A stretch of DNA of 64,000 bases, taken from positions 5,903 through 69,902 of the forward strand of contig JAETPN010000004.1 in the NCBI GenBank assembly GCA_021771185.1, given 5' to 3'. This DNA is from Bacillota bacterium. GTDB taxonomy: Bacteria; Bacillota_I; Bacilli_A; RF39; UBA660. Position numbers: made by a program. This document shows, one piece after another, positions 1 through 12,000 of the stretch. The stretch's first letter is position 1; every line of letters starts with the position of its first letter.

Positions 1-3000
1 TGTTACTAAGGATGGTCATACATATACAATTCATGGGACTAGTAATGAAACAACGACCCTGGCAGCTTCACTTGTAGAATCTTATCTTTCCACGTATAAA
101 GAGTATTTACAACAACATTATTTAGAAGCTCATGAAGTGGCACCTCAGGAGGTTATTCAAATTCTTCAAATCGAAATGGATGTTTCGGAAGAAGAAAACT
201 TTTTTGCTAGCTATATTGTAAATTATGCTTTCTTATTTATTATTATGGCTATTACAATTTCGGCTACATATCCAGCAACAGATACGACAGCGGGAGAAAA
301 AGAACGTGGAACGTTAGAAACTTTATTAACCTTTCCAATGAAAAGTCGTGATATTATTATTGGTAAATTTGTAAGTGTATCTTTCTCATCGATGGTAACA
401 GGTCTTTTAAGTTTGCTTCTTGTGGTTCTTTCTTTATTCTTTGCGGGAGATATGTTTAAGATTTATCAAGAAGTCGATTTAATGTTATCGCCTGTAAGCT
501 TTGGATTTGCTGTACTTGTAATTATTTCATATTCATTTTTAATTAGTGGTTTATGTATTGCTGTTGCTAGTCGTTCCACATCGTTTAAAGAAGCTCAAAG
601 TACTTTAACCCCTTTAACCTTTCTTTCCTTTTTTCCAGGAATGATTGCTTTTATGATGGAACTTAAAACGACTGTGTGGTATGCATTGATTCCTTTTTTA
701 AACTATACGCTTTTATTTACGGATATTACCAATGGAACAGTGAACTATCTACATTTATTATTGATGATTTTATCAACAATTGTTGTTATTGTCGTGGTGT
801 TCTTGTTGCTCATAAAACAATATAAATCAGAAAAAATATTATTTTCAAAATAAAAGATTCCCATAGGGAATTTTTTATGTGACAAAACTGTTAGATGAAT
901 AGTGAGGGCTTTTTGGTATACTTGGGGTAGGAAGTGATTTGATGAAATTTTATATAGAAGACGCGATGTTTATGATCTTTGGTATTGTTTTAACATCTGT
1001 ATTAATTATAGCTTCAGTATCTGCTTTTGTTATTTTTGGTGTAATTATCTTTTTATCCCTATTTGCTCGTTTTAAAAGAATTGATTCTTAAAAATTGGTG
1101 AAAATTGTTAAAAGAAATGAATCTATTGTTCTTCTAAAAAGAAAGAAGATATGATAAAATATTTATATAAAAACCCTCTGCTTTATCATGTTGGGTTTTC
1201 TTTTGGAATTCTTTTCCTAAAGGTACTTATAATTAAGGGATTGACATTTTAGATGTTTAGTGTTATAGTAACACAAAAACTTTGTTCAAAGGGGAGTGGA
1301 TTTTATGGTAAAACAAGAAAAAAACACAAAAAAAGTAGTGCAATCTGCAAAGAAAAAAAGTGAAACAAAGACCGTAAAAGGTAGTAAAACAACTAAGAAA
1401 ACAAGTGAAAAAACAGTAAAGAAGGAACCTCAAGTTCAAGTGAATACGAAAGATAAAAAAGAAAAAAGAAAGTTATCTACGTTAGAGATTATTTTATTAC
1501 TTATTATCTTGTTCCTATTATTATTGTTATTTATGTTCTTTGGGTATCCATGGCTTAGTAAACAATTTGGATGGAATCATGGAACTAAGGTAGAACAAAA
1601 GGAAAAGAAAGATCAAAAAGATCGATTCAATGATAAATATAAATTACAAGAGGATGGTAAAGAGAATGAAAAGGATTTAGAAGTAGGGGATACAGATCAA
1701 GATACATCTTCTACAGATGGACTAGGGTCTACAACGGTAAAATATATTTATGAACAAGGATCATCTTCAAATGGAGCGAATCAAGGAAATGGTGGAGGTA
1801 ACCAAAATTCTGGTGGAAATACACAAACACCAACGAAACCAGTGCAACCTGTAGTTCCTATTGCGACATTTCGATTAAGTGATGGCGAAGCTAGTACTGT
1901 GACATTAAGTCAAGCAAATCGTTCGACGAATGTTGTATTTCATGGTAGTTTAGCTGCGAAAGCACCAATGCCATCAAATGGGATTAATACAGGATATTAT
2001 GTACAGTTCATGGTTATTGCACCAAATGAATATTCGCAAGATACATTAGCTAAGATGAAAGTTTCGACACCAACCGCACAGTATGGAAAATTAGTTGACG
2101 GATATATTGGTGGGAAACCATATTTCTATATGACCCAAGAGTTTATCAAGGGAACAAAATCAAAATTGACAATTAACTGGGGAGACGGATACGAAGTGAC
2201 GTATGCACTAACCTTCCTAGTAGAGACAAACTAAAAGGTATAATAAGGAGGATAAAGATATGATAAAAGAACAAAAAAAGGATTCATTATCTATGCCTTT
2301 CATGACAAAATTACTTTATTATGGAACTTTAATTTTACTAATCCTTGGTGGAATTGGTGGATATAAAGTATATCAAAGTTATGAAAAAAAGGAACAATTA
2401 AAAGAACTTGCAGTAGAAGCTGCGAGAAAATATGTATCAGGAAATAGTATTGTTGTTAAAAAAACAATGAATACAAGCTTGAGCTATTTAGACGAAGAAG
2501 GATATTTAGGAAATTTCGATGCTTCATGTATTGAAAATTCTTATGTTGCAATCAAATCAAATGATGAATATCAACCTGTGATTTCATGTGGTACTTCAAA
2601 GAAGACAAGAAGTAGTGAAGTATCTACTTATGGAATTTACGAAGGAATTTTAACTTATGGTGTATCTGTAAGTCCTAATGATTATACAAATCAGGATATT
2701 ACAGTTACAATTACAGCTAGTGAGCCTGTAAGAGAAATTGAAGGCTGGACAAGAAGTGATGATCATAAAGTTTTAACAAAAATGATTACGGAGAATACCG
2801 AAATTAATCTTACTTTAGTTTCAGAAGCAAGTGAAAATAAAGTAGCTGATGTATCGTTTGTTGTAAATAATATTGATCGTGAAGCTCCTAAGGTAGAAGT
2901 ACGTTACAGTAAAACATCTTTAACAAATGAAGATGTTACCGTGACACTTGTAGGAAATAAACGTTTACGTCACATCGAAGGATGGAATTTATCTGAAGAT

Positions 3001-9000: not shown

Positions 9001-12000
9001 AGTGATCAAAAGGTATTAACCAAAACTTATACTTCTAATATTACGGAAGTTGTAAGAGTACAAGATTTATTAGGAAATGGGGCACTTGCAACGATTGAAA
9101 TTAATAATATCGATAAAGATGCACCAGTGGCTGAAGTCACATATAATCCAAATAAACCAACAAAAGATAATGTTATCGTAACTGTTACATCAAATGAACC
9201 AGTAAGGGAAGTTGAAGGATGGACACGTTCTAAAGATAAGAAAACATTAACCAAAGAATACACAGAAAATCTAACGGAAACAATTACGTTAATTGATGCT
9301 GTTGGAAATCAAGCAGATGTTGTTGTAACGGTAAATCAAATTGATCGTACGAAACCACAATTAAGTGTAGATTATAGTACAGACGTACCAACACAACAAC
9401 CAATCATGGTAACGATTACATCTGATAAACCAATGAAGGAAGTTGAAGGATGGACGTTATCTAGTGATAAATTATCAATGAGTAAAGAATTTGATTCAAA
9501 TGTTGATGAAGTGATTACTGTAAGTGATCTTGCAGGAAATACGAGTGATATTCACGTTCAAATTAGCAACATTGATAAAGATGCTCCAGTAACGAATGTA
9601 AGTTATAGTACGAAAGCACTTACAAATGGAACGGTTACAGCAACAATTACTTCAAATGAAGAAATGCAACCTGTAGCAGGATGGACTTTAGCAAGTGATA
9701 AAATGTCAATGACGAAAACCTATGAAAATAGTATGACAGAATATGTACTTGTCAAAGACCTTGCTGGAAATACAACACCAACGAAAGTAACAATTTCAAA
9801 TATTGATAAAATAGCTCCAGAATTATCGATTGAATATGACAATACAGCATGGACAAAAGATAATGTAACTGCAACGATTTATAGTAATAAAAAATTACAA
9901 GAAGTTGAAGGATGGATTTTAAGTAAAGATAAACGTTCTTTAACAAAATCTTATGGAACTAATATTAATGAAAAAGTAAATGTAAAAGATATTGCTGGAA
10001 ACGTAAGTACAATTACAGTAAATATTACTAATATTGATAAAACTGCACCAGTGATTACTGTTATTGATGGTGAACAACGTTACACTGCAGACTTTATTAA
10101 ACAAGTTGAGGTTAGCAAGACTGAAGAATTTACAAATTTAGAGGCAACTGCTACAGATGATGAAGATACTAAAATTCAAGTAAAAGTATCTGGTAAAGTA
10201 GATCGTGCAGTCCTTGGAACCTATCCAGTAGTTTATGAAGCTGTGGATCATGTAGGTCATAAGACTGTTGTAACTGCAAGTATCGAAGTTGTTGATTCAC
10301 AGGCACCAGTAATTACATTAAATGGTGATGAATTTGTAACGTTAGGACTTGGAAGTAAATATACAGATCAAGGAGCTACTGCAGTAGATAATTATGATTC
10401 AAGTGTTAATGTTAGTTCAACAAATAACATTAATAACTTCCAAATTGGAACGTATGAAGTAACTTATACTTCAACAGATGCTTCTGGAAATACCGCAACA
10501 GCTGTTCGAACAGTTTCAGTAATTCCAGGAAGTGCTAGTGATTTAACAAGAAATATTAATAACTGTAGTACAACAGGGGAATGTTATAATAAAGATGCAA
10601 CAGACAATTATGTTTGGTATAGTGGATATTTATGGCGAATCCTTAAAGTAAATAGTGATAATACGGTTAAATTAGTAACCGAAGATTCTATTGCTGGATT
10701 CTCATATGATGATAATTCTAGTTCATTTAAGGGAAGTAACGCAGAAGATTGGTTATTAAATGTCTTCTACCCAAGTTTGAATAATGCATCAACTATTGTT
10801 ACATCAGGACAATATTGTAACCAACCATTATTAAGTACAACAGCAATTCGTTATAGTTGTAGTAGTAATAATACCGTAACTTCTAGAGTAGGGTTATTAA
10901 CAATGGATGAATATAATATTTTAGGAGCTGAACGTAGTTTCTTAAATAATGGAGATCATTTCTTTACGATGACGCCAAGTCAAGAGGGTTATATATGGGT
11001 TGTACAATTTGATGGAACAAAAAAATATACATTTAGTGTAACAAATCCATATGCTATGAGACCAGTTATTACACTTCACGCAAATGTAAAAGTAAGAACT
11101 GGTAATGGTACAAAAGCAAATCCATTCCGTTTAGAAAATGATTATAGTGCAAATCCAAATACAACACTAAATACACGTAAAACTGGAGAATATGTTCGCT
11201 TTGCTAATAAAAATTGGCGTATTGTATCTACAGGATCTACAACAAAATTAGTGTTAGATGCTAATTATATTACCAATGGTACATATGCAAAAATGACATT
11301 TGGTGATAGCGCAACATTCAGTTTAACGAAGGGAATTGGACAATACTTAAATACAACTGTATACAACAATTTATTTAGTACAACAGATAAAGAGTATTTA
11401 ACACCTACAAATTACTACTTTAGTTCTTATCGTTTAGGTAATAATCCAAGAACGACAAGTTTAACAGCGAGTGGTACAAAAGTAAATGCTTATGTCGGAT
11501 TAAATAATGTTGGAGAGTTAATGAGTGGAAGTAGTAATACAAGTAGAACACCAAACTTTACTTCATGGTTGTTAAATTATAATAGTTATAATAATAACGT
11601 ATGGTTTACAAGTAGTGCGGGAACGAGTGAATATTCAAGTATCTCTGATGTTCGTGGTGTTCGTCCAACGATTACTTTAAAATCAACAGTACGTATTACT
11701 TCAGGAAATGGTACTAGTACTTCTCCATATGTCATTGCATATTAAGTCTAGTACCTCCCTATATGTAGGGATTTGACAAAATAAAAAAATAGTTTATAAT
11801 AAATACTCGAAAAGAAGGGGGATTGTTATGAAAAAACAAGAAACAAACGTTGATAGTGTAGAAAACGTAAAAGTTAATGAATCATGGTTTAAAAAGAATT
11901 GGAAAAAAGCTTCTGTACTTCTTGTGTTATTATTAGGTTTAGGATCATGTAGTTCAGTATCTATTTATCAATGGATTAATGGATCTAAACCAGACACGCC

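Follow-up and report, generated by a model that had tools for sequence, protein, structure and literature searches.

We analyzed a stretch of 64 000 nt from a Bacillota bacterium (GenBank assembly GCA_021771185.1, contig JAETPN010000004.1), referred to in the following as the window. Close to its start the window carries the gene of a giant surface protein of 3161 amino acids (aa) on the plus strand, with a putative N-terminal anchor, a stalk of tandem repeats and a duplicated C-terminal domain. Both the single open reading frame (ORF) at 2260–11745 and this giant surface-protein architecture had been described in an earlier first-pass annotation of the same DNA, and we found them again: the ORF listing, the uninterrupted translation and a ribosome-binding site in front of the start codon all agree. 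As the frame stays open over 9.5 kb at 32% GC and keeps a perfect 231-bp register, its occurrence by chance is ruled out. The following features were assigned to the gene:

2245 to 2251, plus strand: ribosome-binding site AAGGAGG, read from the sequence, 8 nt 5' of the ATG at 2260
2260 to 11745 including the stop codon, plus strand: coding sequence of the giant surface protein, a single ORF of 3161 aa whose translation has no internal stop
2260 to 2646 (aa 1–129), plus strand: N-terminal region with a Lys-rich short tail predicted to be cytoplasmic, a helix and a juxtamembrane segment of ~90 aa
2647 to 10038 (aa 130–2593), plus strand: stalk of 32 tandem 77-aa (231-bp) immunoglobulin (Ig)-like β-sandwich units, a family without a Pfam or NCBIfam model
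3802 to 4956, plus strand: units 6–10, the older copy of a five-unit segmental duplication with its partner, units 12–16, at 5188–6342
5650 to 8652, plus strand: homogeneous core, units 14–26, in the order AAB AAAB AAB AAB, i.e. a super-repeat of 693 bp that occurs once as a 924-bp variant
10039 to 10530 (aa 2594–2757), plus strand: two Bact_surface_Ig-like domains (PF16403, formerly DUF5011; 93.6 bits versus a cutoff of 27, two stretches)
10531 to 11142 (aa 2758–2961), plus strand: head domain 1, DUF6273-related and with four Cys, predicted to have a C-type-lectin-like fold (from AlphaFold2 (AF2), Foldseek and the Pfam matches of homologues)
11143 to 11742 (aa 2962–3161), plus strand: head domain 2, a diverged duplicate of domain 1 with a weak direct match to DUF6273

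The units of the stalk are delimited by a recurring N-I-D motif and measure exactly 77 aa each, in register and with no insertion or deletion over 7.4 kb. Each unit ends with N/Q-I-D and the next one opens with x-x-x-P; the residues T16, T23, G35, W36, I76 and D77 are invariant. Searching the protein with a hidden Markov model built from 22 of the units, we obtained 32 non-overlapping domains with scores of 78–117 bits, unit 1 being the most divergent, which agrees with the number of about 32 repeats given at first pass. Tandem Repeats Finder reported the 231-bp period with scores of 1983–2311.

Within the homogeneous core two subtypes of the unit can be distinguished, subtype A (units 14, 15, 17, 18, 19, 21, 22, 24 and 25) and subtype B (units 16, 20, 23 and 26). 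In a unit-by-unit matrix, core units of the same subtype were observed to share 79–92% of their DNA and 77–94% of their protein sequence, as opposed to ~55% DNA and 48% protein identity between A and B units. Neighbouring units are 55–90% identical in DNA inside the core and 50–65% outside of it, blocks of the core lying 693 bp apart are 82–90% identical, and the longest exact repeat anywhere in the gene is 71 bp. The super-repeat of three units that had been noticed earlier is therefore real, including its junctions NIDKEGPKT (A to A), NIDKTPAKV (A to B) and QIDREGPKT (B to A), but the accompanying description of the units as repeating almost perfectly or being near-identical does not hold at such identities. 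The extent of the repeat core, put at about 5400–8650, was right at its end (8652) and has to be moved to 5650 at its start. Similarly, a nested duplication of about 1 kb does exist, but it is older than the core and comprises five units: units 6–10 and 12–16 are offset by 1386 bp and share 71–80% identity.

For the core copies we calculated dS values (Nei–Gojobori) of 0.18–0.79, with a mean of 0.49 for A and 0.33 for B, and dN values of ~0.04–0.16, resulting in dN/dS ratios of 0.09–0.37. From these values, together with a DNA difference of at least 8%, the core copies are best regarded as old duplicates under purifying selection. The array appears to have grown by an earlier duplication of five units and then by repeated duplication of a three-unit block, and the copies have since drifted apart at synonymous sites under purifying selection. 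Because exact matches reach 71 bp, a change in length driven by recombination is possible; because the copies have diverged, it should be slower than in adhesins with near-identical repeats. Judged from their sequences, the units would be poorer recombination substrates than the first-pass annotation assumed, and changes in length should be much less frequent than in classical Periscope Proteins.

An array of this kind raises the question of whether its core has been collapsed, expanded or mis-joined during assembly, so that the number and order of the units would partly be an artefact and the true number would differ. The expectation that the locus is an assembly hotspot proved correct. In the Logan assembly of the same strain (k=31, run SRR13008605) one contig (L010) is 100% identical to positions 8754–15343 of the window in BLAST, and another (L011) contains the exact 309-aa protein encoded upstream and then reaches 540 codons into the giant gene before it ends at ~3879; no contig of that assembly crosses ~3880–8753, and the core is thus unspanned. 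The contigs of four relatives (L001, L002, L006 and L012) stop inside the homologous gene as well, and an exact look-up of the 3161-aa product returned no record of it as a called gene. The proteins of the window are singletons at 90% identity, with one NCBI contig and one Logan sample carrying the species. Against an artefact, each unit differs from all others in at least 8% of its DNA, and with exact repeats of at most 71 bp every unit can be positioned uniquely by reads or k-mers of more than ~75 nt. In addition, frame and register continue without a single indel across the 7.4 kb, and the differences are mostly synonymous, which resembles real divergence and not the collapse to a consensus. 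For these reasons we argue that the 32-unit structure is genuine, and we consider it unlikely that the assembly of the window has a wrong unit count. Short-read assemblies break at this gene, and similar giant proteins are therefore systematically truncated in catalogues of metagenome-assembled genomes (MAGs).

The stalk unit matched no Pfam-A model when the whole protein was scanned at E <= 0.01 and a two-unit fragment at E up to 10, and no NCBIfam model matched it either. The family Big_5 (PF13205), to which the repeats had been assigned at first pass, was not listed even at E up to 10, where there was sub-threshold noise only (Big_9 with E 3.9), and this label has to be withdrawn. Two further candidates were rejected. 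Pterin_4a (PF01329) reached a Pfam E of 3.6e-11 and the NCBIfam family 4a-hydroxytetrahydrobiopterin dehydratase an E of 3e-19, but both have no individually significant stretch, lie far below their curated cutoffs and result from summing a short EGW..L motif over the 32 units. Homologues such as P0005, P0006 and P0020 carry the same false pterin dehydratase family as a precomputed annotation, which makes it an annotation trap. A sequence search of the PDB with the repeat profile gave nothing real (best E 0.11). As to the fold of the unit, an AF2 model of three consecutive units, computed from an alignment of 30 overlapping three-unit windows of the same protein, reached a confidence (pLDDT) of 96.3 and is all-β, with five strands of at least three residues per unit. 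Comparing this model to the PDB with Foldseek, we found the BIg domains of SiiE (2yn3) in first place (E 4e-5, probability 1.0), and further matches to the GhpA 'grappling hook' rod, nectin, OPCML and Fab chains with probabilities of 0.9–1.0. The Ig-like fold proposed for the repeats is thereby supported, independently of the family name.

A profile search in 1.84 billion representative proteins detected the stalk unit in 2203 of them, 475 at E <= 1e-30. Usually 3–19 copies are present per protein, and one dockerin protein of 3814 aa has 31 stretches. The modules to which the unit is joined elsewhere include dockerins, BspA-type leucine-rich repeats (LRRs), transglutaminase-like and SASA domains and C-terminal transmembrane (TM) anchors, and in none of the top 133 unit-bearing proteins is it joined to the double DUF6273-type head. 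Varied partners, with the head never among them in these 133 proteins, are as expected of a generic spacer module; by its distribution the unit appears to behave as a generic stalk or spacer, and the 32 copies described here are at the upper end of its range. Conserved residues at the unit junctions (N/Q-I-D, D41, D61 and N65) and the strong net negative charge of the protein (474 D+E versus 331 K+R) suggest, by analogy to SiiE, junctions that are stiffened by Ca2+. As the unit is unannotated in ~2200 representative proteins and draws false pterin-4a-carbinolamine dehydratase matches, it deserves a family model of its own.

The C-terminal part of the protein follows the stalk with two DUF5011-like domains, as the earlier annotation had stated, which were recovered as PF16403. 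The duplicated domain of ~200 aa behind them was proposed at first pass too, and it was confirmed by comparing the two halves: hhalign aligned head domains 1 and 2 over 178 columns with a probability of 99.9% and an E of 8e-35, whereas BLASTP aligned just the last 45 aa, so that a profile–profile comparison was needed to see the homology at full length. This duplicated domain had been listed as being of unknown function; it can now be assigned, as DUF6273-related and with a predicted C-type-lectin-like fold. Full-length homologues of the pair with 31–36% identity score 26–29 bits to DUF6273 (PF19789) over the equivalent of domain 1, which passes the cutoff, and PF19789 is precomputed on most members of the double-domain family. 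The AF2 model of the head pair has a pLDDT of 94.3 and a template-modelling score (pTM) of 0.93. Its best solved match in Foldseek was the IgA peptidase (IgAse) of Thomasclavelia ramosa (9qa6; E 2e-6, 359 aligned columns). The enzyme's N-terminal DUF6273 domain is part of this entry and has the core of a CTLD (C-type-lectin-like domain) (PMC12237041). The next matches, the C-terminal domain of Legionella Lcl (Lcl-CTD) and CTLDs of the mannose receptor, were weak (E 0.15–1.2). In the viral library BFVD the closest matches of the head came from gut phages and were DUF6273 proteins (E 6e-14 to 1e-4, probability 1.0), among them proteins annotated as receptor-binding and as tail-fibre/tail-collar. 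DUF6273 is known to adopt a C-type-lectin-like fold and to serve as the receptor-binding domain of phage 'tentaclins', where it is diversified by a diversity-generating retroelement (DGR) (PMC10743442). Going by the models and these matches, the head is predicted to consist of two DUF6273-type, C-type-lectin-like domains in tandem. Matches of the head to designed 'Cake' propellers in the PDB sequence search were discarded as summed noise with 0 significant stretches. With regard to a DGR, no template-repeat-like copy of the head DNA occurs elsewhere in the window, and no reverse transcriptase was found among the ORFs scanned, which were part of the ORFs of the window.

In the protein homology search the last 722 aa served as query. 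In GTDB species genomes and JGI metagenomes, the closest loci are 43–49% identical over the last 568 aa, and their MAGs are labelled 'uncultured Tenericutes', 'Bacilli' and 'uncultured Muribaculaceae'. All four giant relatives (L001, L002, L003 and L012) have kept the cassette of two DUF5011 domains and the double CTLD at 43–49% identity, while the stalk varies: in L001 it consists of at least nine units of the same 77-aa family, and in L002, L003 and L012 of other Ig-like repeats and helical segments. In detail, L003 (326–11743, >3805 aa) and L012 (open from the contig start, at least 2016 aa) have repeats of ~100 aa with the pattern 'DGTYTV..D.AGN' and a long helical segment, so that the stalk has been replaced wholesale between lineages. 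A head that is conserved while its stalk can be exchanged marks a protein that consists of a stalk and a functional tip. Searches of genome and metagenome collections with the head returned only relatives of 28–49% identity, all of them truncated or of short architecture.

The head pair as query found 216 proteins, most of which cover 94–99% of it. Among the best 120 of the 216, 16 proteins of ~520–650 aa have a prepilin N-terminus, GF(T/S)LxE (GFxxxE), and in ~90 a hydrophobic helix at the N-terminus precedes the pair, either directly or with a domain of ~170 aa in between; the non-pilin proteins among these 120 are mostly ~450–650 aa long, and a few are fragments of giant proteins. One of the pilin-like proteins, P0126, passes both TIGR02532 and Pfam N_methyl. 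Pilin-like double-head proteins occur in gut Bacilli (P0126–P0131, P0133 and P0138), and in one Bacilli MAG (L009, 9452–11158) the pilin-type double-head gene was observed alone among housekeeping genes, with no pilus operon. A SipW-type signal peptide, considered for the homologues of ~600 aa on account of a '..YA[WYF][LF]' motif, was dropped as there was no NCBIfam support.

At the other end of the protein, the only hydrophobic helix is located at aa ~14–36 (nt ~2299–2367), where a Kyte–Doolittle plot has its single peak. The ~90 aa that follow match no Pfam family and hold two cysteines, Cys90 and Cys110. An LPXTG-like motif was not found (regular expression [LSN]PX[TAS][GAN]), and the protein ends with ...SPYVIAY, with no C-terminal hydrophobic segment. 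The protein also has no YSIRK motif, no usable lipobox and no RTX motif GGxGxD, and it thus differs from the RTX or type 1-secreted giant adhesins SiiE, LapA and MpIBP. The N-terminal anchor without LPXTG that had been noted earlier is consistent with the hydrophobic stretch and with the negative motif search; its nature as a signal-anchor is a prediction. An uncleaved anchor at the N-terminus would suit a lineage that is classified with the wall-less Mycoplasmatota. Searching metagenome contigs with the N-terminal 206 aa, we found no orthologue.

We propose that the protein is an N-terminally membrane-anchored, monomeric fibrillar adhesin with a ligand-binding head that is held far from the cell, and we assign a probability of roughly 0.65 to this reading. 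The term 'adhesin', used already at first pass, is an inference. The uncleaved signal-anchor helix at the N-terminus would fix the protein to the cytoplasmic membrane and leave the remainder outside the cell. The 32 units and the two DUF5011 domains, 34 β-sandwiches altogether, would form a long rod on the order of 100 nm, given that SiiE-type Ig-like domains add 3–4 nm each. At the distal C-terminal end of this rod the modelled head of two C-type-lectin-like DUF6273 domains would bind the ligand, most likely a glycan or a protein that is carried by host mucus or by another cell. In this view the stalk would act as a spacer, and the function would reside in the head.

Several points weigh against this proposal. 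The own PF19789 scores of the head are low, with 15.8 bits (E 0.013) for domain 2 versus a cutoff of 23.5 and no match for domain 1. With canonical Ca2+-dependent C-type lectins the head shares the CTLD core fold only, and weakly so; their Ca2+/sugar motifs EPN, QPD and WND were not found anywhere in the protein. The only DUF6273 domain with a solved structure, that of the T. ramosa IgAse, is not required by the enzyme to cleave IgA (PMC12237041, PMC12402451). That the N-terminal helix is an uncleaved membrane anchor rather than a cleaved signal peptide is predicted from its sequence, the rigidity and length of the rod are extrapolated from other proteins with Ig-like stalks and the count of 32 units rests on one assembly.

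In the proposed organization the protein resembles fibrillar adhesins and Periscope Proteins such as SasG, Aap, Rib and Sgo_0707 (PMC8201768, PMC9704523, PMC8286594), in which one polypeptide likewise forms a stalk of tandem β-sandwiches with a functional domain at the anchor-distal end, and which share with it the higher-order repeats and the difficult assembly. As in Periscope Proteins, repeats of more than 50 residues form the bulk of the protein (32 x 77 aa, 78% of its length); its attachment to the surface would follow from the single N-terminal helix. Unlike Periscope Proteins, whose head is N-terminal and whose LPXTG anchor is C-terminal, it combines an N-terminal membrane helix with a C-terminal head, and its stalk domain stands outside every Pfam family. 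The repeats of Periscope Proteins are nearly identical in DNA (PMC9704523), i.e. their identity is described as 'very high', whereas the best unit pairs reach 92% here and those outside the core ~50–65%. The term DUF6273 was not found in the full text of the two fibrillar-adhesin survey papers. With Salmonella SiiE (53 BIg domains, 2yn3) the protein shares a rod of dozens of Ig-like domains, acidic junction residues and a distal C-terminal end. SiiE, however, is exported by type 1 secretion from a diderm bacterium and has Ca2+-binding junctions, while the protein described here has no RTX or type 1 secretion signal, is predicted to be anchored by a membrane helix and shows a sequence identity of only 17–18%. 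Like the N-terminal domain of the T. ramosa IgAse and the phage 'tentaclin' or Mtd-like DGR targets, it would expose a DUF6273 fold at the end of a surface or virion protein; in contrast to these, it has a fixed tandem pair of ~200 + 200 aa, no peptidase attached and no DGR found in the window. The pilin-like relatives with prepilin GFxxxE and the double domain would display the same head away from the cell as well, but here the prepilin motif is absent and the distance would be covered by a covalent Ig-like stalk instead of pilus polymerisation.

The head might also be directed at other microbes, recognizing for example a bacterial surface polysaccharide, and could serve in co-aggregation or in the attachment of a reduced-genome bacterium to its partners. 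Such a target would be in line with the closest structures of the viral library, the receptor-binding, tail-fibre and tail-collar DUF6273 proteins of phages, which bind to bacterial surfaces (PMC10743442), with the Mycoplasmatota-like gut lineage of the host and with the presence of the same head on type IV pilin-like proteins. The host-directed IgAse of T. ramosa carries a DUF6273 domain too (PMC12402451), and a DGR template repeat was not found in the window, both of which argue the other way, and on balance we hold a microbial target to be rather improbable. A non-adhesive spacer or envelope scaffold, such as a cell-coat 'fur', a steric shield or a device for nutrient capture whose lectin-like domains serve in self-assembly, would fit the many roles implied by a stalk family that is also joined to dockerins, transglutaminase-like, SASA and LRR modules and by a DUF6273 family without assigned function (PMC12237041), but appears very unlikely as it is the distal head and not the stalk that is strongly conserved across relatives, and as pilin-like proteins present the head as well, the pattern expected of a ligand-binding module at a tip.

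Beyond the single protein, a broader and more tentative suggestion can be made, which we think has a somewhat less than even chance of being correct: the tandem DUF6273 pair could be a portable 'tip adhesin' cassette of ~400 aa in gut Bacillota/Mycoplasmatota that is mounted on pilins, on short anchors or on long Ig-like stalks. If true, it would represent a previously unrecognised adhesive domain family for a host or microbial ligand, and the 77-aa unit would be a new Ig-like stalk family without a Pfam entry and with >2000 protein clusters. We regard these findings as moderately novel, with respect to the Pfam-less stalk family and to the double DUF6273 head that is common to pilin-like proteins; the class of fibrillar stalk-and-head adhesins as such is known. 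The double head connects surface fibres and type IV pilin-like proteins with receptor-binding proteins of phages and with the IgA protease of T. ramosa, and through this link a domain without assigned function becomes accessible to testing. To our knowledge, the uncultured RF39-type Mycoplasmatota-like bacteria of the gut are common and have never been grown. With ~9.5 kb of a small genome and a clear anchor–stalk–head design, the gene is a concrete candidate for attachment in RF39-type bacteria.

The window is chromosomal, as rpsB, tsf, uvrC, mutL, smc, proS and gltX are present. The elongation factor EF-Ts encoded by it is 79% identical to that of Candidatus Pelethosoma and 76% identical to that of Candidatus Fimihabitans, both of which are listed as Mycoplasmatota incertae sedis in NCBI. 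By sequence similarity, the host is an uncultured low-GC gut bacterium related to Ca. Pelethosoma/Ca. Fimihabitans and is Mycoplasmatota-like. Nearly all ORFs of at least 100 aa in the window (1–64000) are on the plus strand and each 2-kb bin has a positive GC skew, in agreement with a leading-strand segment from a small genome with a strong strand bias.

The immediate surroundings of the giant gene contain the following features:

1241 to 1269, plus strand: promoter-like site TTGACA-17-TATAGT with extended TG, a consensus match only (11 of 12 positions)
1305 to 2234, plus strand: gene of a 309-aa membrane protein, with its stop codon 25 nt before the giant gene
11773 to 11800, plus strand: candidate promoter of the 256-aa protein, with the perfect consensus TTGACA-16-TATAAT
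11828 to 12598, plus strand: gene of a 256-aa TM-anchored proline-rich protein with PKPVDPKPD repeats and a tandem repeat at 12236–12382 (periods of 15, 30 and 60 bp)

The 309-aa protein begins with a Lys-rich stretch and has one TM helix; a Gly/Asn/Ser linker of low complexity leads to a C-terminal domain of ~130 aa. Neither Pfam nor NCBIfam has a family that matches it, at 90% identity it is a singleton, and the same gene order is present in the Logan contig. With only 25 nt between its stop codon and the giant gene, the two genes are probably co-transcribed, and the promoter-like site 5' of the 309-aa ORF is likely the start of this two-gene transcription unit. The proline-rich neighbour on the other side may be another extended surface protein, to judge from its repeats. 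Relatives carry dnaE downstream of the homologous gene and the window does not; there is therefore no conserved downstream operon partner.

Further away from the giant gene, two ORFs on the plus strand at 45214–46398 (394 aa) and 58667–59809 (380 aa) have BspA-type LRR_5 repeats at the same residues 211–331 and likely encode paralogous surface proteins; LRR_5 is also among the modules to which other organisms have joined the 77-aa stalk unit. One tRNA only is present in the window, tRNA-Glu (CTC) at 19982–20058. Around mutL, three ORFs on the plus strand (37508–39028, 40900–42144 and 42148–43590; 506, 414 and 480 aa) have no Pfam match at E <= 1e-8. The gene of ribosomal protein S2 (32269–33327, plus strand) encodes 352 aa, with an unusual C-terminal Rho_N extension at residues 318–351.

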